Below are positions 1 through 44,772 of a stretch of DNA of 64,000 nucleotides, in pieces. Each line of letters opens with the position of its first letter. Positions within the stretch are counted from its first letter, which is position 1. The stretch lies in the NCBI RefSeq assembly GCF_016903815.1, contig NZ_CP069973.1, one strand, 5' to 3'. A model generated the notes under the pieces. The model saw only the letters and a program-made list of their open reading frames with translations. It was not told the origin of the DNA and did no database searches. The stretch comes from Escherichia coli (lineage in GTDB: Bacteria > Pseudomonadota > Gammaproteobacteria > Enterobacterales > Enterobacteriaceae). The translations under genes and the position numbers were made by a program.

Positions 1-112
1 GTGAAAAAATAGCATGTTTATCCAGTTCAACAGCTCCAACCAAGTTGAAACCGGCTCGAGTTGCCCCTAAGCTTAAACCGCCAACTCCAGAGAATAAATC
101 AACTACATTCAT
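1..112 (-). CDS. DNA (cytosine-5) methyltransferase, N-terminal 37 codons only (gene runs leftward out of the window)
   Basis: Reverse complement of 1..112 reads MNVVDLFSGVGGLSLGATRAGFNLVGAVELDKHAIFS: the FxGxGG AdoMet-binding motif I and the following E-x-D-K motif of C5-MTases. Start codon is complement of 110..112. Confidence 0.6.
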   Translation of the reverse strand, partial: MNVVDLFSGVGGLSLGATRAGFNLVGAVELDKHAIFS

Positions 113-394: not shown

Positions 395-2500
395 CTAGCC
401 ACTTATCTTCTCTTGCCGAGTAAACATTGGCAAATAATGCTTTAATGTGTTTCTAAACACTCTGACGACCTCTGGGTCACTCCATTCGATAACACCGTCA
501 TCAACCAGATTAAGCACTGCTGCGGCGTGCTCAGAAGGTGTGGGAGCCGGTAACGAAGTATCACCACCAGTGAGCTTTCCACAGTTATTGACAGGACTCC
601 GAGGCGCGGCGATGCCGCTTTTTAAAGTCAAAGGCTCAACGACCGGAACTTTCGGCACAATGCGCCAGTCCGTCGTTCTGGTGATATGAATATGACGCGC
701 GCCGAGATGCGGCGCGTAAATGCCGACCACTCTCTCGACTTCTTCCTCGTACTCGTTAACGTCATCCGACGGGCTACGGGCAACCCTGACAGTCTGACAA
801 TCGCGCGGGACATTTGCCCCACCCTGCGCGCTGATATACAACGCAAAATCACCACTGTCTGCGGCAGCGCGAGCAGCCTCGACGCGTTCGTCAAACTCAT
901 CAGCAATACTGACGCCGCGAGGCAATTTGCGTAGTTCACGGTAAGCCCCCATTGTCGGCAGTCCAACCGTTTTAAATTGCGGGATGCGCCACGTTGACGC
1001 CCATGCAGTAACAGCCGCGGCAGTATCTTTCAGAGGTCTGCCGGTATCGTTATCGAGCTGACCATCCAGTGCATAGCCGTCGATGTTTTTTGAGATGTAT
1101 TTCGCGATATACCCCGCAGCACCGCCCCGGTTAAGGTGTTTTGCCTGAAAACGGTTTCGCGCGGCTCCTCTTTCGTCGCCATCCTCTTTGAGCGCATAGC
1201 GACGCATGATTTCGATAATCTGGTTACGCTGGCGCGGATTACAAAAAAGCATCATATGCCAGTGCGGCGTTCCGTCGTGGTGTGGCTCGACGACACGCAA
1301 ACCGTAGACCTGTAAATCATTATCCTTGAATGCCGTGCGCATCAGGCTCCAGATACGGCAGAGATAACGCTGCGCATCCTTTGGATTAAATGCCTCATCG
1401 TTCCAGCCGTGATTTAGCTGGACGGTTTTACTTTCGCCTTTTCTGACCTGACGTGTCGGGTGATACTTTGACGGCGCGGTCAGCGTGATAAACATCCCCA
1501 CATCACCCTCTGCTGCGGCGTAACGCTCAATACCGGCAATGGTGTTCATCAGCTCCATCCGGCGAATTTCAGGATTAGAAATACTGCCCATCACCTTACT
1601 GATAAGGTCGATGCGCTCGCCGGTTTCCCTGTTTTCGAGATCACACGATTTAAGAAATTCCAGATTTGCCTGGCGGCGTGCACGCACATCACGAATGGCA
1701 TGTTTACTGGCATAAGGAGAACGGTCTTTATTGACCTCCCCGACAGCAATCAGTAACGCCTCATGCCAGCGCATACGCTGGCCTTTAAGCTGATGAGTCC
1801 ACCACTCATCGTTAAACAGACGGGCAATGGCAGAATATGCCTGCCTCGTGGTCATCTGCCCTTTACGGTATTTTTTCCAGTAGAGAGGGGATATATTGAA
1901 AGCACGTGCAGCGCCAGCAACATGACCATAGAGGTGAGCCTGCGCCTCATCCGTAAACAGCGATTCTTTTTCGCCATGCGCATCCACCCAGGCATCGCTG
2001 AGTTCCTCATACATCATGAAAAGCTGCGATGAGATACGGGCAGCAAACTTTTTCAGCTCCTTGTCATTCATTCCCGGCAGGCGCGCATAGTGGTCACGCT
2101 CTGCCAGAAACAGTAACGACGCGTCGGTGTTCATTTCATGGCGCTGATTCACACGCTCAATGCGCGGCCATAAACGGCGCTGAAAAGTGGATGTGAGGAA
2201 ATAAAACCCGTGCACCGGGCTTTTATTGCGCCGGATGTAGTCATAGCGTGAAGTAAACAGCGAACGCAAAAAGTAAGGCAGGCGGTTAATCGTGGATAAA
2301 ACACCTTGCACCTGACGCATCTCGTCACGTGTAAGGGGTCTTTCGCGCCCGACAGCCTCGCGTGGCGCGCTCCATGCATAAGCACCGGTAAACGTCTTAC
2401 CGGTGCCTGCAGCAAATGCTGACGGAGGGACAAAACGCCCGGAGGCTTTAATGGCCATATGAGCCAAAAGCCTCTGAACAACGCTTGCTGAGTTGCTCAA
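395..2500 (-). CDS. P2 gpA-like replication initiation protein (701 aa)
   Basis: Large ORF at the distal end of the cox-B-A early operon; size and position as for P2 gene A. Confidence 0.7.
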   Translation of the reverse strand: MSNSASVVQRLLAHMAIKASGRFVPPSAFAAGTGKTFTGAYAWSAPREAVGRERPLTRDEMRQVQGVLSTINRLPYFLRSLFTSRYDYIRRNKSPVHGFYFLTSTFQRRLWPRIERVNQRHEMNTDASLLFLAERDHYARLPGMNDKELKKFAARISSQLFMMYEELSDAWVDAHGEKESLFTDEAQAHLYGHVAGAARAFNISPLYWKKYRKGQMTTRQAYSAIARLFNDEWWTHQLKGQRMRWHEALLIAVGEVNKDRSPYASKHAIRDVRARRQANLEFLKSCDLENRETGERIDLISKVMGSISNPEIRRMELMNTIAGIERYAAAEGDVGMFITLTAPSKYHPTRQVRKGESKTVQLNHGWNDEAFNPKDAQRYLCRIWSLMRTAFKDNDLQVYGLRVVEPHHDGTPHWHMMLFCNPRQRNQIIEIMRRYALKEDGDERGAARNRFQAKHLNRGGAAGYIAKYISKNIDGYALDGQLDNDTGRPLKDTAAAVTAWASTWRIPQFKTVGLPTMGAYRELRKLPRGVSIADEFDERVEAARAAADSGDFALYISAQGGANVPRDCQTVRVARSPSDDVNEYEEEVERVVGIYAPHLGARHIHITRTTDWRIVPKVPVVEPLTLKSGIAAPRSPVNNCGKLTGGDTSLPAPTPSEHAAAVLNLVDDGVIEWSDPEVVRVFRNTLKHYLPMFTRQEKISG

Positions 2501-2723
2501 CCTGCGCGTTTAAATCAGCAAAAGACTTTGCGCTTCCGGTCAGAATATCGTGATGCATCAGGCCGGAAACGAGCTGGCTTAATTTCGGGTAATAACCAAC
2601 CACCGCCAGCCACTCCTGACCGGCGTTTTTACCGCTTTCCGCTCTCTTTTTCTCATGGAGAATAAACTGAAAGCTGTCACTGGTAACGACATAACGTTCG
2701 CCAATTTCTATACGAATGCTCAT
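2448..2723 (-). CDS. Hypothetical phage early protein (orf83 position)
   Basis: 91-aa ORF in the early operon, overlapping the A start; no recognisable motif. Confidence 0.4.
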   Translation of the reverse strand: MSIRIEIGERYVVTSDSFQFILHEKKRAESGKNAGQEWLAVVGYYPKLSQLVSGLMHHDILTGSAKSFADLNAQVEQLSKRCSEAFGSYGH

Positions 2724-2944
2724 GCCATTCTCCGGTAATGTTTGTTTTTTGCTTCAAAGACTGACTGACAGGAAACACAACGCGTGGCTGACGGATAAGC
2801 CGCACGACGGGCAGCAGGTATTGGCACGTCACACTCTTCACAAACCAGCGCAGAAGCACCGCAATGTTTTACCCTTGCCGCGTTAATCTGGCGCTCCAGT
2901 AATTCAGCCTGCTGTTCCTGAATAAAATCCACGTTGTCCGGCAT
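2720..2944 (-). CDS. TraR/DksA-type C4 zinc-finger protein (orf82 position)
   Basis: 74 aa with CEECDVPIP...ATRCVSCQ, two CxxC pairs typical of phage TraR/DksA-like proteins. Confidence 0.55.
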   Translation of the reverse strand: MPDNVDFIQEQQAELLERQINAARVKHCGASALVCEECDVPIPAARRAAYPSATRCVSCQSVFEAKNKHYRRMA

Positions 2945-3249
2945 TACCAGCTCCTTTTGTCGTTCAGCTTCTTAAATTCATCAGCGCAATAGCTGGCGAT
3001 TTCTGTCGTTAATTTCGTCAGTTCATCCACGGAGGAGATTTGCTTATGAAATACAGCGCGTTTAACAAGTAAATTGACCACATCAGACAGGAGGTTTAAT
3101 TCGTTCTGATAAATCGCGATAACAGATTCAGTTATTTCGCGTTTTTCTTTATCAAGACCAAGTTGAATAAGAGACAAATCGCCATTTTTCATAACGGCGA
3201 TTTTTAAGGCATTGTTCAGTAATACAACTGAATGAGAACAGGACATCAA
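2944..3249 (-). CDS. Hypothetical phage early protein (orf81 position)
   Basis: 101-aa ORF, start overlaps stop of the upstream ORF. Confidence 0.4.
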
Positions 3250-3503
3250 AGCACCTCCCCGCGAGACAACCCGATATTGTGAAATTTTTCCGACTCCTGA
3301 CTGAGCAGCTCGACTATCTCCACGCGGGATAACTCCGCCTTTGTGATATGGCGAATCATGGCGTCAAGATGAGAAGAAAAGCGCGTCGCTGCGTCGGCCT
3401 GTGCTTCGGTTCTGGCCTGTTGCAGCAGTAATGCGTATTTACCGCACTGATTTTCAGAAACTGTATGCATGACTTTCTCCAGGCAAAAAGAAGCCCCGCA
3501 CAA
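3246..3503 (-). CDS. Hypothetical phage early protein (orf80 position)
   Basis: 85-aa ORF, 4-nt overlap with the next ORF. Confidence 0.4.
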
Positions 3504-3533
3504 TTAAGTGCGTTAAAAACTCTGGTTAATTAC

Positions 3534-4034
3534 TTAATGCAGATATTGCTCTGGTTTTACCGATGTCAGAATTGTCGGTGCATACTCAAACAGACTGAAT
3601 AATTCACGTAATGCACGGAATAAAGCTTCACGCCAGTAACATGATTCTTCATTAATTCGCCAGTATGGCTGGTTAAATTCTTTTTCTGTCAGTCGTGCGT
3701 GCATAAATAAAGTGCGGCGCTGACTGACAGTTAAAAAGCTAATATATGCATACTCACTTGCACCGACCTGACGGCGTTTTGAGAATGCCCCACGCAATTC
3801 ATCAATTGCACAAACCAGCCGTTCACGTTCGACGTCGTTCATTTCTTCAAAACGCATCGTTGCGTGACGTTGTTTTAACTGCGCATGAAAGCAAACTGTT
3901 AGCCGTTCGCGCTCCATCATCTGATTATAATAATCACATGTCTCCTGCCAGCGAGGAACGGCAAGATGCTTACCAATTATCCGGCGCATAGTTGCTGGCT
4001 GTTTTTCAACGAGATTGAGCGTCATCACTGTCAT
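3534..4034 (-). CDS. P2 gpB-like replication protein (166 aa)
   Basis: Exact size and position of P2 gene B between orf78-like and orf80-like. Confidence 0.6.
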   Translation of the reverse strand: MTVMTLNLVEKQPATMRRIIGKHLAVPRWQETCDYYNQMMERERLTVCFHAQLKQRHATMRFEEMNDVERERLVCAIDELRGAFSKRRQVGASEYAYISFLTVSQRRTLFMHARLTEKEFNQPYWRINEESCYWREALFRALRELFSLFEYAPTILTSVKPEQYLH

Positions 4035-4225
4035 TTCCAGCCCCTCCGGCTTTTCAGAAAGGTCAGAGCCTTCTTTAACGGACTCTGTTTTTTGGTGCGG
4101 ATAATGATTCCCTTGCGTCCCTTCCCGTGGGTGATGGTGAAGTCAATCGCCCTGGGGCTTTCGTTACGCAATAACTGAGCAATACAACGAGGCTCATTCA
4201 TACGGTTCTCCTTAACGTGGTTCAC
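4031..4225 (-). CDS. Small phage early protein (orf78 position)
   Basis: 64-aa ORF (56 aa from an internal Met) between cox and B. Confidence 0.35.
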   Translation of the reverse strand: MNHVKENRMNEPRCIAQLLRNESPRAIDFTITHGKGRKGIIIRTKKQSPLKKALTFLKSRRGWK

Positions 4226-4487
4226 CGAGACCTAACCACATCAACCAGCCGTCACGAATCTCTTTAGGACGGCTTTCATAAGCCAGTTTTAGTCCGTTAT
4301 TCCATGCCGGAATGTATACCCAATATTCACCAGCACGCCCCGATACTGACTGAGGGTCAGTAATCTCAATAACTGGTAATTTCCCTTTCTCAATCATGCC
4401 CCTTACAGCTCTTGGAGTTTTACCAATGAGTTTTGCAAACTCCTGATAAGGCACGGCATCAGTCACGCTTACAAGCTGTCTATTCAT
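4212..4487 (-). CDS. cox: Cox-like excisionase / transcriptional regulator (91 aa)
   Basis: First gene of the leftward early operon, divergent from the C repressor; 91 aa as for P2 Cox. Confidence 0.6.
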   Translation of the reverse strand: MNRQLVSVTDAVPYQEFAKLIGKTPRAVRGMIEKGKLPVIEITDPQSVSGRAGEYWVYIPAWNNGLKLAYESRPKEIRDGWLMWLGLGEPR

Positions 4488-4608
4488 CTGCTACGATTCT
4501 CCCTTAGTGCTTCTAATGGCTCCTAATGGCTAATTATTGCCTAAAAGGATAACTCCAGAAGCACAACATTTCACACCATCAGCAAGAAATTACGCAATCG
4601 GAGTAATT
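4488..4608. promoter_or_regulatory. Divergent early/repressor promoter region (lysis-lysogeny switch) with direct-repeat operator candidate
   Basis: 121-nt gap between divergent cox and C; direct repeat CTAATGGC at 4513..4520 and 4523..4530, one helical turn apart. Confidence 0.45.
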
Positions 4609-4908
4609 ATGTCAATAGACGTTTCGGAGAAGTTGAAGCTAATCCGTGAATCTGAAAGGTTAAACCGTAAAGAATTCAGTGAATTAACTGGTGTAGCCTA
4701 CAGCTCACTTTCGAGCTATGAGAGCCGGTCAAAAAACGCTGGAGTTGAAGCCATAATGAAGGTCTTACAACATCCCAGATTTACTAAATATACTTTGTGG
4801 TTCATGACTGATCAGGTAGCTCCAGAAGCCGGGCAAATTGCGCCCGCTCTCGCACACTTTGGGCAAAACGAAACAACGTCGCCCCACTCCGGTCAAAAGA
4901 CTGGTTAA
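4609..4908 (+). CDS. C: C-type immunity repressor (99 aa from internal Met; track ORF starts at 4537)
   Basis: MSIDVSEKLKLIRESERLNRKEFSELTGVAYSSLSSYE has an HTH-like segment; size and position as P2 C immediately upstream of int. Confidence 0.6.
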   Translation: MSIDVSEKLKLIRESERLNRKEFSELTGVAYSSLSSYESRSKNAGVEAIMKVLQHPRFTKYTLWFMTDQVAPEAGQIAPALAHFGQNETTSPHSGQKTG

Positions 4909-5023
4909 CAATTTATCGTGAATATATTCATCACAAGTGCCTACTATTGGTGGCTAAATTTCAGCCACCACGAAAAAAGCGATTAGTAGTAGCAAAAAAA
5001 AGTACCACTCGGAGGGTTTTCTG

Positions 5024-6037
5024 ATGGCAATCAAAAAACTCGATGATGGTCGATATGAAGTGGACATTCGCCCTACTGGACGTAACGGAAAACGCATCCG
5101 TAGGAAGTTTGATAAGAAAAGCGAAGCTGTCGCTTTCGAAAAATACACGTTGTACAACCACCACAATAAAGAATGGCTATCAAAACCAACAGACAAACGA
5201 CGTCTGTCGGAACTGACACAGATCTGGTGGGATTTAAAGGGTAAACACGAAGAGCATGGGAAATCTAATCTTGGAAAAATTGAAATCTTCACAAAAATAA
5301 CGAATGACCCATGCGCATTTCAAATCACGAAATCCCTTATCAGCCAGTACTGCGCCACCCGAAGAAGTCAGGGTATTAAACCTTCGAGTATCAATCGTGA
5401 TTTAACATGTATTAGCGGCATGTTTACAGCCCTGATTGAAGCGGAGTTATTCTTTGGTGAGCACCCTATCAGAGGGACAAAGAGGCTTAAGGAGGAAAAA
5501 CCAGAAACAGGCTATCTCACACAGGAAGAAATTGCCTTACTGCTTGCAGCACTTGACGGCGACAATAAAAAGATTGCGATTCTTTGCCTGAGTACAGGAG
5601 CACGTTGGGGAGAAGCAGCTCGTTTGAAAGCAGAAAATATCATCCATAACCGCGTCACGTTTGTTAAAACGAAAACAAACAAACCACGCACCGTCCCGAT
5701 CTCAGAGGCTGTTGCCAAAATGATCGCGGATAACAAACGAGGTTTTTTATTCCCTGATGCTGATTACCCTCGCTTCAGACGAACAATGAAAGCAATAAAA
5801 CCGGATTTGCCAACGGGGCAAGCCACACATGCACTAAGGCACAGCTTTGCCACTCATTTCATGATTAATGGAGGAAGTATTATCACGCTACAACGGATAC
5901 TAGGTCACACGCGGATTGAGCAAACTATGGTTTACGCTCATTTTGCGCCAGAGTACCTTCAGGACGCCATTTCTCTTAATCCGCTAAGAGGTGGTACTGA
6001 AGCCGAGAGTGTCCACACAGTGTCCACAGTAGAGTAA
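5024..6037 (+). CDS. int: Tyrosine recombinase, P2-type integrase (337 aa)
   Basis: C-terminal HALRHSFATHF...LGHTRIEQTMVYAHF carries the R/H-x-x-R/Y catalytic signature; 337 aa as P2 Int. Confidence 0.9.
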   Translation: MAIKKLDDGRYEVDIRPTGRNGKRIRRKFDKKSEAVAFEKYTLYNHHNKEWLSKPTDKRRLSELTQIWWDLKGKHEEHGKSNLGKIEIFTKITNDPCAFQITKSLISQYCATRRSQGIKPSSINRDLTCISGMFTALIEAELFFGEHPIRGTKRLKEEKPETGYLTQEEIALLLAALDGDNKKIAILCLSTGARWGEAARLKAENIIHNRVTFVKTKTNKPRTVPISEAVAKMIADNKRGFLFPDADYPRFRRTMKAIKPDLPTGQATHALRHSFATHFMINGGSIITLQRILGHTRIEQTMVYAHFAPEYLQDAISLNPLRGGTEAESVHTVSTVE

Positions 6038-6116
6038 CGTTTAAGGGCTTTCAGTGGTAATTTATGCCGCTCAAACCCGCATTGTACCGTTGAAAGCCCC
6101 TACTGGTGACACCCTA

Positions 6117-6143
6117 AATCTCCCTTACACGGGCTTATTTTTT
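6117..6143. other. Putative P2-type attachment site core (prophage/host junction)
   Basis: AATCTCCCTTACACGGGCTTATTTTTT is the reverse complement of the 27-bp P2 att core as I recall it (AAAAAATAAGCCCGTGTAAGGGAGATT); 80 nt past the int stop. Confidence 0.55.
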
Positions 6144-6313
6144 GTGCATAAACCATAGAGACGGATTGATCCCAGGTGACCGTCTTCCATTGACCACATC
6201 GATAGAATCTCCCTTCATAGCACGATGCCTTTCACGTAACGGCATCGTGCTCGCACAGGTTCCGGCTAAGCACAACCAGAACGCGCATGTTTGACGCTTA
6301 CCAAAAAATATTC

Positions 6314-6631
6314 TCACTCTCCACATTTGAATGTCAGACGAGCGACGCCATGTAATCCTGCACCTTCTGTCTTCAGGTCAACTATCTGCATTTTTTTGCC
6401 CTGAGTAACACAGAAATGAGCTGCATCATTTTTTACTATATTTTCTGCACCAGATATTCTGCCCCTGGCTAAAGAAGCTTCGGCTTCGGTGTAGTATTGG
6501 TTATCGAGTTTACGCTGAATATTACTTTTATATGCAAGACCAAATTTACCGATACTTGTCTCATCATTATGTACAGCACACCCAGACATAAGAAAAACAC
6601 TAATTAATGATATAGCAGCTATCTTTTTCAT
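6314..6631 (-). CDS. yegR: Small lipoprotein YegR (105 aa)
   Basis: MKKIAAISLISVFLMSGC signal peptide with lipobox; track ORF extends to 6691. Confidence 0.7.
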   Translation of the reverse strand: MKKIAAISLISVFLMSGCAVHNDETSIGKFGLAYKSNIQRKLDNQYYTEAEASLARGRISGAENIVKNDAAHFCVTQGKKMQIVDLKTEGAGLHGVARLTFKCGE

Positions 6632-7045
6632 CTTACCTTCCCCCATTAAATACCAACGACACGCTCTGGTGTTAAAATATAATAATGGCATGATTATTAT
6701 AATTGAATAGGATTATAATAAATGTTCTGTACAACATTTCCTACATAAGTAGGAATTACAAACATGAAGCCCTGCCCAGGTATCCCCATGAGGGCTTTAA
6801 TATATTTAGAATAAGATAGTGAAGATGCCACTGTTTAGTTGAATATTAGGTATATGCTCTTTTTTGAAATTTACCGGTGGCTACCGTTAACATTCACTGT
6901 CCCCATTGCAAGCTCCTGGTGGTAACCACTGAATCCTCCATACTTGAACTGATTTTTTATCCTCCGACTTTCATCCTGTTCTGACTCCACCTTTTCTTTT
7001 CTGCTCTACACTATCTACAGACCAATCATAAAGGCACATACGATC

Positions 7046-7945
7046 ATGGCAGAATTTCCCGCCAGCTTACTGATTCTTAATGGCAAAAGTACTGACAATT
7101 TACCATTGCGCGAAGCAATTATGCTGTTGCGTGAGGAAGGAATGACGATCCATGTGCGGGTCACCTGGGAGAAAGGCGATGCCGCACGATATGTAGAGGA
7201 GGCCCGGAAGTTGGGCGTCGCAACGGTGATTGCCGGTGGTGGCGATGGCACCATTAATGAAGTTTCTACGGCGTTGATTCAGTGTGAGGGGGATGACATA
7301 CCCGCGCTAGGAATTTTGCCATTAGGAACCGCCAATGATTTTGCCACCAGTGTAAGGATTCCTGAGGCACTGGATAAGGCGCTGAAACTGGCAATTGCCG
7401 GTGACGCCATTGCGATAGATATGGCGCAGGTCAACAAACAAACCTGTTTTATTAATATGGCGACAGGCGGATTTGGGACGCGTATTACCACAGAAACGCC
7501 GGAAAAATTAAAAGCCGCGCTGGGTGGCGTCTCTTACATCATTCATGGCTTAATGCGCATGGATACTCTGCAACCGGACCGTTGTGAGATCCGCGGTGAA
7601 AACTTTCACTGGCAAGGTGACGCCCTGGTCATTGGTATTGGTAACGGGCGTCAGGCCGGTGGCGGTCAGCAATTGTGCCCGAACGCGTTAATTAACGATG
7701 GCTTGCTGCAACTGCGCATTTTTACCGGCGATGAAATTCTTCCGGCTCTCGTATCAACATTAAAATCTGACGAAGATAACCCGAATATTATCGAAGGCGC
7801 TTCGTCGTGGTTTGATATACAAGCCCCACACGAAATCACTTTTAATCTTGATGGCGAACCGTTGAGCGGACAAAACTTTCATATTGAAATACTTCCGGCG
7901 GCGTTGCGTTGTCGATTACCACCAGATTGCCCATTGTTGCGTTAA
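7046..7945 (+). CDS. yegS: Lipid kinase YegS (DAGK-like)
   Basis: 299 aa with GGDGT motif of the diacylglycerol-kinase catalytic fold. Confidence 0.85.
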
Positions 7946-12129: not shown

Positions 12130-14324
<2,195 letters not shown>

Positions 14325-24367: not shown

Positions 24368-25402
24368 TTAGTCGTATTTCACGTTGATTAATGCGGTTGC
24401 CTCCAGTGCGCCAGATTTAACTTTGTTTGTATCGTAGACGTAGTAACTGGCAGTTATCGGAATTGAAACCGTTGTATCTGTAAGTTTTGACTTCGCAGCA
24501 ACTTCCTTTAAATTTGTATATCCTTTACTGCTGTTAGTGATATTTAAAAGTGTGACTGGCGAACCATTACTTTCAAGAATAAACCCTACGCCATTATCTT
24601 CCGCACCTTTCAGGATCGTGTTACTACTGCCCCACAAATCAGAACTTGATAAATACACCTGCATTTTTCGTGATGTTTGATTTTGTTGACCTAATAAATT
24701 TTTACAACGCAGAATAATATCTCCTTTTTTACTATTTATTGTTGCTTTGTTACCTGTGGCTGGTAATTGTGAAACGGGAGTACTCTCTAAAGTAATTAAT
24801 AAATCGTCCGGTTTGCAGGTCGTTGTTATCGGGTTATATGACAATGCCAGATTAAAGGAATAGACACCTGCATTTTGTGCCAATGCATTTCTGTAGCTAT
24901 TTACACATGCATCCCATGACTTGCCACCTAATAAACACAGTAGAAATTGTACTGCGGCACTCCCGCGTGTCGATGATGAAGCACTGGATAATGTCGCAAC
25001 TCCATTAATCATCACTGAACCGCCGCCCCCCGCAGAAACATTCACTTTTGCATTACTGGCTGCAGGTGTCACCGTTACCGAATAACCATTGGTGAAACTG
25101 GTCTGATTATTTGACAACGTGATGTTATTTTTATTGGTCCATTCAAAATGTAAATTTAATTTAATGGTATCGTTATAAAGTCCAACAATAATATCCGACG
25201 GGCTCATAGGGGTGATAGTATTTGTACTCACGCATGACGAATCATTAAAATTATGCTCATAGGTCGCCATTTGTGTTTGAGTAAGTGCAAAATCCCCCTG
25301 AACAACCAAATTGTGCTGAACAGATAACTCACTATAACATGCTGCATAGCTCACTGGCATAACCATCATCATTAATATAAATAGCATTATGCGAATTTTC
25401 AT
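24368..25402 (-). CDS. yehA: Fimbrial adhesin-like protein
   Basis: 344-aa secreted protein, last gene of the chaperone-usher cluster. Confidence 0.75.
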   Translation of the reverse strand: MKIRIMLFILMMMVMPVSYAACYSELSVQHNLVVQGDFALTQTQMATYEHNFNDSSCVSTNTITPMSPSDIIVGLYNDTIKLNLHFEWTNKNNITLSNNQTSFTNGYSVTVTPAASNAKVNVSAGGGGSVMINGVATLSSASSSTRGSAAVQFLLCLLGGKSWDACVNSYRNALAQNAGVYSFNLALSYNPITTTCKPDDLLITLESTPVSQLPATGNKATINSKKGDIILRCKNLLGQQNQTSRKMQVYLSSSDLWGSSNTILKGAEDNGVGFILESNGSPVTLLNITNSSKGYTNLKEVAAKSKLTDTTVSIPITASYYVYDTNKVKSGALEATALINVKYD

Positions 25403-41079: not shown

Positions 41080-43278
41080 ATGGACAAGGAATTACCGTGG
41101 CTGGCGGATAACGCCCAAGTGGAACTGAAATATAAAAAAGGCAAAACGCCGCTCAGCCATCGCAGTTGGCCGGGCGAACCGGTGCCTGTTATCACTGAAA
41201 GCCTCATCCAGACACTGGGTGATGAATTGCTACAAAAAGCTGAGAAGAAAAAAAACATTGTCTGGCGTTATGAAAATTTTTCACTGGAGTGGCAGTCGGC
41301 CATTACGCAGGCCATCAACTTGATTGGCGAACACAAACCCTCAGTTCCGGCCCGGACAATGGCGGCGCTAGCCTGTATCGCGCAAAATGATAGCCAACAG
41401 TTGCTCGACGAAATCGTCCAACAAGAGGGACTGGAATATGCGACTGAGGTGGTGATTGCACGCCAGTTTATTACACGATGTTATGAAAGTGATCCTCTGC
41501 TAGTGACATTGCAGTATCAGAACGAGGATTATGGCTATGGTTATCGATCAGAAACCTATAACGAATTCGATCTCCGACTGCGTAAGCATCTCTCTCTGGC
41601 AGAGGAAAGCAGCTGGCAGCGTTGCGCCGACAAACTCATTGCCGCACTGCCAGGAATAACCAAAGTTCGCCGCCCTTTTATTGCTCTGATCCTCCCGGAA
41701 AAACCAGAAATCGCCAATGAGTTGGTAAGCCTTGAATGCCCGTGGACTCATTTTCATTCTAAGGAGTGGTTAAAAGTTGTTGCTATTGACCCCAGAGCGG
41801 TGAGAAAACTCGAACGCTACTGGAGCCAGGATATATTTAGCGATCGGGAAGCCAGCTACATGTCGCATGAAAACCACTTCGGCTACGCGGCCTGCGCTGC
41901 CCTTTTGCGCGAACAAGGACTGGCAGCCGTTCCACGCCTGGCAATGTATGCCCATAAAGAAGATTGCGGCAGTCTGCTGGTACAAATTAACCATCCGCAG
42001 GTCATCCGCACCCTGCTGTTAGTTGCTGATAAAAACAAACCCAGCCTGCAACGTGTAGCTAAATACAGTAAAAATTTCCCCCATGCGACGCTTGCCGCAC
42101 TGGCAGAACTGCTGGCGCTAAAAGAACCACCTACGCGCCCTGGTTATCCAATCATCGAAGACAAAAAGCTGCCTGCACAGCAAAAAGCACGTGATGAATA
42201 CTGGCGTACGCTGTTACAAACGCTGATGGCATCGCAGCCACAACTGGCAGAAGAGGTGATGCCGTGGTTAAGTACTCAAGCCCGGTCAGTGCTGAATAGT
42301 TATTTATCGGCACCGCCTAAAACGGTTATTGATAGCACCGATAACAGCCAAATGCCTGAAATCCTCGTTTCACCACCGTGGCGTAGTAAGAAAAAAATGA
42401 CAGTTCCACGTCTTGATTTGGCACCGTTCGAATTAACGCCGCAAGTTTACTGGCAACCAGGCGAACGAGAGAGGCTTGCCGCCACTGAGTCTGCCCGTTA
42501 TTTCAGCACGGAATCTCTTGCGGAACGCATGGAACATAAAAGTGGACGAGTTGTACTACAGGAGCTGGGTTTTGGAGATGATGTATGGCTGTTTCTGAAT
42601 TATATACTCCCCGGAAAACTGGATGCTGCACGCAATTCACTCATTGTTCAGTGGCATTACTACCAGGGGCGGGTTGAAGAGATCCTGAATGGCTGGAACT
42701 CCCCGGAAGCACAATTAGCAGAACAGGCGCTTCGCAGCGGTCACGTAGAAGTGTTAATTAACATATGGGAAAATGACAGCTACTCACGCTATCGTCGGGA
42801 AAAGAGTATCTGGAACCTGTATTTATTGGCACAGTTGCCGCGTGAGATGGCTTTGACTTTCTGGCTACGTATCAATGAGAAAAAGCATCTGTTCGCGGGT
42901 GAGGACTATTTTCTCAGTATCTTCGGATTGGATGCTCTACCAGGTCTGCTGTTGGCTTTTTCACATCGTCCAAAAGAAACATTTCCGTTAATTTTAAATT
43001 TTGGCGCAACAGAACTGGCCCTGCCCGTTGCCCGCGTCTGGCGACGTTTCGCGGCGCAGCGTGATCTGGCTCGCCAGTGGATTTTACAATGGCCGGAACA
43101 TACGGCTACTGCACTTATCCCTCTTGTCTTCACCAAATCCAGCGATAATAGCGAAGCTGCATTACTTGCCCTACGTTTACTTTACGAACAGGGACATGGT
43201 GAATTGCTGCAAACCGCGGCAAACCGCTGGCAGCGTACAGATGTATGGCCTGCCCCGGTCTGGCAAAACTGGTGCTGA
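41080..43278 (+). CDS. Third MolR/YehI-family paralog (732 aa), no WGR module, ends at TGA
   Basis: Aligns to YehI residues ~100-800 (LPWLA, LRLRKHLSLAEES, PEKPEIA, VSPPW.SKKK blocks); starts 10 nt after yehI stop with AAGGAAAGA RBS; no P-loop. Confidence 0.6.
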   Translation: MDKELPWLADNAQVELKYKKGKTPLSHRSWPGEPVPVITESLIQTLGDELLQKAEKKKNIVWRYENFSLEWQSAITQAINLIGEHKPSVPARTMAALACIAQNDSQQLLDEIVQQEGLEYATEVVIARQFITRCYESDPLLVTLQYQNEDYGYGYRSETYNEFDLRLRKHLSLAEESSWQRCADKLIAALPGITKVRRPFIALILPEKPEIANELVSLECPWTHFHSKEWLKVVAIDPRAVRKLERYWSQDIFSDREASYMSHENHFGYAACAALLREQGLAAVPRLAMYAHKEDCGSLLVQINHPQVIRTLLLVADKNKPSLQRVAKYSKNFPHATLAALAELLALKEPPTRPGYPIIEDKKLPAQQKARDEYWRTLLQTLMASQPQLAEEVMPWLSTQARSVLNSYLSAPPKTVIDSTDNSQMPEILVSPPWRSKKKMTVPRLDLAPFELTPQVYWQPGERERLAATESARYFSTESLAERMEHKSGRVVLQELGFGDDVWLFLNYILPGKLDAARNSLIVQWHYYQGRVEEILNGWNSPEAQLAEQALRSGHVEVLINIWENDSYSRYRREKSIWNLYLLAQLPREMALTFWLRINEKKHLFAGEDYFLSIFGLDALPGLLLAFSHRPKETFPLILNFGATELALPVARVWRRFAAQRDLARQWILQWPEHTATALIPLVFTKSSDNSEAALLALRLLYEQGHGELLQTAANRWQRTDVWPAPVWQNWC

Positions 43279-43332
43279 CAGTGGGGCTTACAGCAGGCGG
43301 GAGAACAACTGCTAAAAACGGTTCTCACCCGT

Positions 43333-44772
43333 TTGCGCCAGCACCACTTGCCTGCTTCGACCGCGGATATGGCTGCCGCTCATCTGCATGCGATGGCGCT
43401 GGCACAGTTGCGCGGACATAAACTACCGTTACGCACTGACTGGCTGGATGCCATAGCAGGCTCGCTGATTAAAGAAGCCCTGAACGCGCCGTTGCCGTGG
43501 AGCTATCGCGGCGTTATTCATCCCGACACCGATCCGATTCTGCTAACGTTGATAGACACATTAGCGGGTGACGGATTCGGTAAACTTGCCCCTTCTACGC
43601 CACAACCGCCTCTGCCAAAAGATGTCACCTGCGAACTGGAACGTACCGCAATCTCTCTTCCGGCGGAGCTTACCTTAAATCGCTTTAACCCCAATGGACT
43701 AGCGCAAAGTCAGGTGTTACATCGGCTGGCAATACTGGAGATCCCAGGGATTGTACGCCAGCAGGGAAGCACACTGACACTTGCAGGCAACGGTGAAGAA
43801 CAGTGGAAATTAACCCGCCCGCTTAGCCAGCATGCGGCATTGATTGAGGCCGCCTGCTTTGGTGCCACACTCCAGGAAGCCGCACGCCATAAATTAGAAG
43901 CCGATATGCTGGACGCGGGTGGAATCGGCAGTATCACCACATGTCTTAGCCAGGCGGCGTTAGCGGGTCTGGCGTCCTTCAGTCAACAATTATTGGAGCA
44001 ACTCACATTATTAATCGCCCAGGAAAATCAATTTGCCGAAATGGGCCAGGCGCTGGAAGTGCTATATGCCTTATGGCGGCTGGATGAAATTAGCGGTATG
44101 CAAGGCGCGCAGATATTACAAACGACGTTATGCGCGGCTATCGATCGCACGCTGTGGCTGTGTGAATCTAACGGCAGACCAGATGAAAAGGAGTTTCACG
44201 CTCACCTGCATAGCTGGCAGGCGCTTTGCCATATCCTGCGCGATCTACATAGCGGCGTTAATTTACCCGGCGTTTCTCTTTCTGCGGCGGTAGCCTTACT
44301 GGACCGCCGCAGTCAAGCGATTCATGCCCCGGCGCTGGATCGCGGCGCGGCTCTTGGCGCACTGATGCGTCTGGAACATCCCAACGCCAGTGCCGAAGCG
44401 GCGCTGACAATGCTGGCGCAGTTATCCCCGGCACAATCCGGCGAAGCGCTGCACGGTTTGCTGGCGCTGGCCCGCCATCAACTGGCCTGTCAGCCGGCAT
44501 TTATCGCCGGTTTCAGTAGTCATTTAAATCAACTGAGTGACGACGATTTTATTAACGCCCTGCCCGATTTACGCGCGGCGATGGCCTGGCTACCACCACG
44601 AGAACGCGGGACGCTGGCGCATCAGGTGCTTGAGCATTATCAACTGGCGCAACTTCCCGTTTCGGCACTGCAAATGCCGTTGCATTGTCCACCACAAGCC
44701 ATTGCACATCATCAACAACTCGAACAGCAGGCACTGGCATCGCTGCAACACTGGGGAGTTTTCCATGTCTGA
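43333..44772 (+). CDS. Ala/Leu-rich protein, start uncertain (TTG 43333 or ATG 43369); same frame as upstream paralog
   Basis: 479-aa ORF unrelated to the MolR C-terminal domain; overlaps yehP start by 8 nt. May correspond to the C-terminal part of K-12 yehM (recollection, unverified). Confidence 0.5.
   Translation: MRQHHLPASTADMAAAHLHAMALAQLRGHKLPLRTDWLDAIAGSLIKEALNAPLPWSYRGVIHPDTDPILLTLIDTLAGDGFGKLAPSTPQPPLPKDVTCELERTAISLPAELTLNRFNPNGLAQSQVLHRLAILEIPGIVRQQGSTLTLAGNGEEQWKLTRPLSQHAALIEAACFGATLQEAARHKLEADMLDAGGIGSITTCLSQAALAGLASFSQQLLEQLTLLIAQENQFAEMGQALEVLYALWRLDEISGMQGAQILQTTLCAAIDRTLWLCESNGRPDEKEFHAHLHSWQALCHILRDLHSGVNLPGVSLSAAVALLDRRSQAIHAPALDRGAALGALMRLEHPNASAEAALTMLAQLSPAQSGEALHGLLALARHQLACQPAFIAGFSSHLNQLSDDDFINALPDLRAAMAWLPPRERGTLAHQVLEHYQLAQLPVSALQMPLHCPPQAIAHHQQLEQQALASLQHWGVFHV

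Follow-up and report, generated by a model that had tools for sequence, protein, structure and literature searches.

The question raised by this locus is what the 27 nucleotides at positions 6117 to 6143 of the window (the whole 64,000-nt stretch of E. coli DNA that was analysed) represent, and what lies on either side of them. The initial annotation had recognised here a P2 core located 80 nt past an integrase gene, and the sequence, the coordinates and the spacing all proved to be right. The 27-mer, AATCTCCCTTACACGGGCTTATTTTTT, which is the crossover region, was aligned by exact string search to NC_001895.1 24356-24382 (L001 8146-8172), where the P2 record carries a misc_feature "attP" and an Int "attP core". 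Allowing up to 3 mismatches, the motif had one match in the window and none in 100 shuffles (query 6116-6142), and no further core-like copies were found in a search at up to 7 mismatches. The first base of the core is the 80th nucleotide past the int ORF. The window matches P2 exactly between the int stop codon and the end of the core, the single difference in 5990-6143 being at 6001, inside int. Between int and the core the P'-arm repeats and the Cox-binding region are present in P2-identical form; their positions were carried over from the protein_bind features of NC_001895 (P' arm, 24470-24496; Cox, 24399-24472), with the offset set by the core. The features of the int-proximal junction are as follows.

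5024..6037, plus strand: P2-type tyrosine integrase gene int, 336 of 337 residues identical to P2 Int
6003..6100, no strand: P' arm Int sites and attP Cox-binding region, with direct repeats TGTCCACA at 6010-6017 and 6021-6028
6117..6143, no strand: att core of the int-proximal junction, 27/27 against the annotated P2 attP core

With the P' arm beside int, as in the annotation of NC_001895, the lambda/P2 convention names the flagged junction attL (BOP') and its counterpart at cyaR attR. The boundary between positions 6143 and 6144 is the exact edge of the prophage.

The integration site, at the 3' end of the sRNA gene cyaR, is P2 locI, the preferred site in E. coli C. It lies between yegQ and yegR in the gene order yegQ-cyaR...yegR-yegS. 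P2 attP and its attB at locI were reportedly described by Barreiro and Haggard-Ljungquist in 1992; the P2 site has been known since the early 1990s, and the junction is of the textbook type. A P2-type int was found beside yegR in 802 of 5,426 complete E. coli genomes (~15%). Since "cyaR RNA" is listed as a P2-prophage site, with "ogr-D'" as the entry for K-12 (PMC3032704, Table 2), the junction is ordinary and already known biology.

No CyaR match was obtained by Rfam in window 5900-6400, even at E<=10, because just the last 27 nt of cyaR are present there. The STnc320 match returned by Rfam in the same interval (13.7 bits) was dismissed as chance, and a consensus scan of 5900-7100 revealed no terminators. 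The core together with its phage left flank folded no better than shuffled sequences (z=-0.42) and lacks a 5' stem to pair with; a role of the junction copy of the core as a good int terminator was therefore discarded.

The window stops inside the cargo of the prophage, and completeness was read from a near-identical public genome, that of E. coli strain 7/2 (NZ_CP023820.1). The two sequences were identical over 8,314 nt and differed once in a further 49,901 nt, giving 1 mismatch in 58,215 nt, at window 45657 within yehP; the window thus stems from strain 7/2 itself or from a very close relative. In strain 7/2 a second exact copy of the core is located at L002 8925-8951, 32,879 bp upstream, and the full P2 gene set, with complete late operons, lies between both cores in the order yegQ - cyaR/core - ogr - D ... 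late operons ... P - Q - cargo - A - ... - cox - C - int - core - yegR. The second core copy and the late genes to which the initial annotation had pointed are hence present in this close relative. None of the 40 annotated CDS of the prophage that were translated had an internal stop; gpA, at 687 aa against 761, carries a pseudogene call. The upstream core forms the end of an intact cyaR (Rfam RF00112, 100.7 bits) and makes up the loop, U-tail and 3' stem half of its terminator hairpin (-15.9 kcal/mol, z=-5.7).

Seen from the window, the arm from A to int might be all that is left beside a core, with no late genes and no second core: the window begins inside a cargo gene, which places the late genes out of view, and gpA is truncated. 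We regard such a remnant as very improbable, since strain 7/2 holds the whole prophage and the second core at 1 mismatch per 58,215 nt, and since the first 1000 nt of the window are common to 45 genomes, of which the 30 listed were all (30/30) 100% identical. These 45 genomes have in common the particular junction between the Dcm-type methylase gene and A. The 27-mer is, very probably, the int-proximal attL (BOP') of a complete 32.9-kb Peduovirus prophage at locI, and the island with yegR beyond it appears to be what is left of an earlier P2-like integration.

Integration would have proceeded as in P2, from whose biology the steps are drawn. The P2-type Int would recombine the core of the phage with its identical 27-nt counterpart in cyaR, which forms the loop, 3' stem half and U-tail of the cyaR terminator; the Int arm sites, the Cox sites and the core do not differ from those of P2. 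Recombination would duplicate the core, leaving cyaR intact at the ogr-side junction and a core devoid of cyaR past int. P2-type phages are classically non-inducible by DNA damage, and treatment with mitomycin C is hence a poor test.

The A-gene region matches at a further location in the genome of strain 7/2, as it does in many of the 45 related ones, and these genomes therefore probably carry a second P2-like prophage. Two accessory ORFs were noted in the strain 7/2 prophage, one of 197 aa (L002 15985-16578) between the tail sheath and tail fibre assembly genes and one of 261 aa (L002 21860-22645) between the baseplate V and virion morphogenesis genes. Neither had a Pfam, PADLOC or NCBIfam match, and both matched just PHROGs of unknown function. 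Elsewhere in the window, gatZ (12130-13387, minus strand) is annotated as frameshifted in strain 7/2, and the galactitol operon may thus be defective. Two adjoining pseudogene calls in strain 7/2 correspond to window 41080-44772 (plus strand), between the DUF4132 genes and yehP; one is a hypothetical protein without its C-terminus and the other a DUF5682 protein with an internal stop.

The part of the prophage that lies in the window follows the P2 gene order, and 465-6143 showed 96-97% nucleotide identity to P2 and Peduovirus records. Upstream of int the following genes were identified.

1..112, minus strand: 5' end of a C-5 cytosine DNA methyltransferase gene, last cargo gene at the gpA-gpQ hotspot (strain 7/2, L002 34648-35799, minus strand)
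395..2458, minus strand: gpA replication endonuclease, 687 aa (761 aa in P2), 660 residues identical to P2 gpA
2448..4201, minus strand: P2 early genes orf83, orf82, orf81, orf80, B and orf78, assigned by protein identity to P2 (identical residues 89/91, 72/74, 95/100, 73/74, 161/166 and 55/56, respectively)
4212..4487, minus strand: cox (excisionase, Pc repressor), 75 of 91 residues identical to P2 Cox, mosaic, with a diverged N-terminal part
4609..4908, plus strand: C immunity repressor, 99 aa, 64 of 99 residues identical to P2 C

The last ~20 residues of gpA are diverged from or unrelated to P2 gpA, and 74 C-terminal residues are absent; the gene is flagged by PGAP as a pseudogene with "missing C-terminus". 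The breakpoint falls at approximately window 441-465, where the match of every phage record ends; the exchange of cargo at the gpA-gpQ hotspot thus removed part of the A gene. The equivalent of the P2 ori nick site is kept at approximately window 600, a position derived from the annotated P2 site (record 29892) by applying the alignment offset. Given the truncation and the pseudogene call, the prophage may not be able to replicate.

The interval between gpA and gpQ is a hotspot of anti-phage systems in P2-like phages (PMC9122126). Three non-P2 genes occupy it in the strain 7/2 prophage (L002 32284-35799), of which just 112 nt are inside the window.

Cargo 1, 474 aa: GHKL/HATPase_c_3 ATPase (Pfam HATPase_c_3)
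Cargo 2, 330 aa: PF20553 "putative O-methyltransferase" (Pfam Methyltransf_35)
Cargo 3, 383 aa, convergent: Dcm-type C-5 cytosine methylase (Pfam PF00145, E=1.7e-59; PADLOC MTase_II, Type II MTase, E=9.6e-100)

The GHKL ATPase and the PF20553 protein had no PADLOC or NCBIfam match and fell into PHROGs families of unknown function. PADLOC called no system in the cargo, recognising the methylase by itself. The suggestion that the prophage carries likely defence cargo agrees with the hotspot position, but the genes lie almost wholly outside the window and the methylase is the one component that PADLOC recognises. Based on their position and on the combination of a methylase with an ATPase, a defence role is plausible, and the cargo looks like an uncharacterised modification-linked system.

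An immunity repressor had also been predicted, and it was indeed found at 4609-4908, but it is not of the P2 immunity type. A P2-type repressor would be nearly identical to P2 C; at 64/99 this one is not, the differences being mostly within the first ~55 residues. Nucleotide identity to P2 falls to 59-78% over window 4301-4800, and the region 4205-4960, which contains C, is 99.7% identical to the prophage record ON470606.1. Set against int, the attP Cox sites and all that lies to the left, which are P2-like, the diverged C/Cox region marks a mosaic: the att/int module is that of P2, and the immunity module is not. The divergence of C and Cox further suggests that the prophage is probably heteroimmune to P2. 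The Cox protein is itself a variant, diverged in its N-terminal part, while the attP Cox sites at attL stay P2-identical.

On the other side of the core the initial annotation placed yegR immediately beyond. This is roughly the case, but yegR is on the minus strand and it is its 3' end that sits 170 nt past the core. The megablast match to P2 runs on past the core to 6202, as the sequence on the right side of the core is similar to the IHF site and P arm, which make up the ogr-side half of attP. This attP-like flank was seen in the window, in the empty sites of E. coli C and Yu5, and in K-12. The features beyond the core are as follows.

6144..6205, no strand: decayed P2 P-arm, left end of the apparent older remnant, from the P2 alignment; also present in prophage-free E. 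coli C and Yu5
6219..6251, no strand: perfect inverted repeat with an 11-bp stem, 3' of yegR; fold -24.6 kcal/mol on the minus strand (z=-4.3) and -22.4 on the plus strand (z=-4.7)
6314..6631, minus strand: yegR, gene for a 105-aa lipoprotein, from the annotation, in an AT-rich stretch of 33-37% GC
6903..6958, no strand: decayed P'-side (6903-6931) and degenerate core (6932-6958, 19/27), right end of the apparent older remnant, from the attP alignment
6959..7945, plus strand: ancestral spacer between cyaR and yegS, including the yegS promoter region, followed by yegS (7046-7945), from outgroup comparison

The left end contains GGATTGAT at 6163-6170, which resembles the end of the IHF site, and, at 6188-6202, CATTGACCACATCGA, which exactly copies the half of an arm-type Int site. 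None of 1000 shuffles reached the score of the local alignment to the P2 P arm, and Escherichia sp. MOD1-EC7003 has a full-length, diverged P arm at P2 spacing. The inverted repeat at 6219-6251 is probably the yegR terminator.

P2 similarity for 59 nt past the core (to 6202), including a P-arm Int site at 6188-6202, is what an intact attP would produce, either at the junction of a tandem double lysogen or in an excised circle. This we judge to be extremely improbable: the similarity past the core is patchy, no ogr follows, and E. coli C and Yu5, which have no prophage here, show the same flank behind the core, running into yegR and yegS.

The right end of the island provides the counterpart of the left. 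Its P'-side was aligned with the int-proximal half of P2 attP at a score reached by 0 of 500 shuffles in the window, in E. coli C and in MOD1-EC7003. The degenerate core, located via outgroup alignments, is the best non-self match to the core in the window and improves to 21/27 in MOD1-EC7003; MAFFT aligned 6932-6958 with the true core of Escherichia genomes that lack the island. By itself, a match of 19/27 should occur ~0.12 times per window of such size, and the case rests on the exact position together with the arm homology.

The ancestral state was determined from cyaR loci sampled at one genome per species. In 66 of the 118 species-representative loci yegS starts less than 250 nt past the core, and in E. 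whittamii, E. coli E69 and Escherichia sp. E1V33 the yegS promoter spacer directly follows the cyaR core. Relative to other Enterobacteriaceae, E. coli has an insertion of ~815 nt (6144-6958) exactly at the P2 crossover point. An insertion at that point, a core repeat and both attP arms in correct orientation were thus all found. The island ends are conserved in K-12, C, Yu5 and UTAK-4, and 5,423 of 5,426 complete E. coli genomes matched the yegR island region. In MOD1-EC7003 the island measures 479 nt, a fragment of YegR with the signal peptide and lipobox is on the opposite strand compared with E. coli, and the sequence past the yegS promoter diverges; the island was therefore rearranged differently in that lineage.

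Other small insertions (~0.3-2.9 kb) between the cyaR core and yegS were observed in 18 species, several of them with the same ~630-nt insert; the insert loci include L020, L048, L060 and L086 (Enterobacter/Lelliottia), L105, L109 and L117 (Kluyvera) and L088 (Salmonella diarizonae). In general, the cyaR 3' end seems to act as a hotspot at which small islands accumulate.

From the decayed P arm, the P'-side and the core repeat at the ancestral junction, the island appears to be the stump of an earlier P2-like prophage at cyaR. The flank that had been described as host DNA is, on sequence comparison, itself a probable fossil P2-like remnant, and on this reading the flagged junction would join a modern prophage to a fossil one. 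The arms could instead be of another origin, P2-like phages having taken theirs from the E. coli flank or the similarity being convergent, and the island does lack any phage coding remnant and yegR is no phage gene. We hold this to be highly unlikely. P2-like prophages at cyaR of Citrobacter and Buttiauxella have this arm site too, with the spacing seen in P2, and the arms are annotated functional Int sites of P2. Both island ends match the correct attP halves in the right orientation, with a core-like repeat at the ancestral junction, and cyaR stands directly beside yegS in island-free Escherichia and 66/118 other species.

The origin of yegR was approached separately. A tblastn search of 40 prophage proteins against the island returned noise only, and YegR was not found in true phage genomes by tblastn or distant blastn. 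As a candidate phage gene it was rejected, the sole matches being ON470606.1 and AY639599.1, both of which carry host flank. The YegR match to phrog_21109, a family with no assigned function, may stem from prophage calls overrunning into the flank. The YegR family (PF27694) is nearly confined to Escherichia and Shigella; two distant homologues were located, one in an IS-rich region and one in an ordinary chromosomal context, neither in a P2-like prophage. In other species, P2-like prophages at cyaR have cargo between the P arm and ogr. As the island holds no phage genes and YegR is absent from phages, yegR may or may not have arrived with the phage. The YegR lipoprotein has been detected by proteomics (PMC3210124). 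No link of yegR to a prophage remnant was found in the literature searched; the 1992 description of locI (J Bacteriol 174:4086) was beyond that search.

For the fossil reading, the left core of the older prophage would have outlived the decay of the rest as the cyaR terminator. Its preservation would be due to this role, and it would thereby have kept serving as attB, to be reused by later phages, namely the one that left the ogr-D' remnant of K-12 and the present prophage. The cyaR terminator would then have been reused as attB through at least 2-3 rounds of lysogeny and decay, and the "empty" locI, including those of E. coli C and K-12, would be a scar left when an earlier P2-like phage integrated and either introduced or trapped yegR. 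The fossil island is a small evolutionary footnote, probably so far undescribed. It is doubtful that the attP-like architecture of the yegR side of locI, to which the arm-type Int site and the IHF-like remnant kept beside the bacterial core in all E. coli would contribute, helps to explain the preference of P2, with the attL of a lysogen amounting to a near-complete attP and yegR to domesticated att-ogr cargo; if true, a near-complete attP at attL would alter excision or permit secondary recombination. The retained Int arm site at 6188-6202 is unlikely to be functional.

Comparison with K-12 confirmed that its yegQ-yegR interval holds just ogrK and a D fragment, as the initial annotation had stated; in an MG1655 derivative the order is yegQ - cyaR/core - ogrK - D fragment - yegR. 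A partial second core, TACACGGGCTTATTTTTT, is kept at the D'/yegR joint, which indicates that the int-side part was lost by internal deletion. The K-12 arrangement arose from a full prophage that lost ~31 kb, with one deletion endpoint within D and the other within the int-proximal core. The claim that the present strain retains the int-side arm that K-12 has lost is therefore correct as to the loss in K-12, but what is kept here is the whole 32.9-kb prophage, not just an arm. The ogr-D' region of the strain 7/2 prophage was aligned with the K-12 remnant at a score of 263 over 295 nt (~95% identity), a level at which both retention and independent lysogenisation are possible.

E. coli C and strain Yu5 have an empty site, E. 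coli C with the same core and the same flank. In E. coli UTAK-4 (L006 2308-2334) a different P2-like prophage is located at this site. It matched the int-to-yegR query from the window at 79.9%, and its int-side core is a variant, AAACGCCCTTACACGGGCTTATTTTTT, with a left end unlike the P2 core. On these two grounds, more than one integrase lineage seems to use the cyaR attB.

The prophage can be compared with several known systems. With P2 attP/locI it shares the 27-nt core, Int (336/337), the P' arm repeats, the Cox-site region and the position between yegQ/cyaR and yegR; it differs from P2 in C (64/99), in Cox (75/91), in the truncated gpA and in the replacement of old/tin by other cargo. The site and orientation are the same as for the ogrK and D' remnant of K-12, with a nearly identical ogr-side junction, but ~31 kb were lost there and the strain 7/2 prophage keeps all. 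The prophage record vB_EcoM-720R8 (ON470606.1) agrees in integration site, in the C/cox immunity region (99.7%) and in int, and differs in having a full-length gpA (2,280-nt gene) and other hotspot cargo. Wphi2 of E. coli W and P2*B of E. coli B are prophages at the same cyaR site. More generally, the locus belongs with integrations at the 3' ends of tRNA and sRNA genes, in that the core is the 3' end of cyaR, the terminator is restored, and a good and a decayed core flank the yegR island. Unlike the remnants usual at such ends, the yegR island keeps arm-type recombinase sites without phage genes and is fixed in essentially all E. coli.
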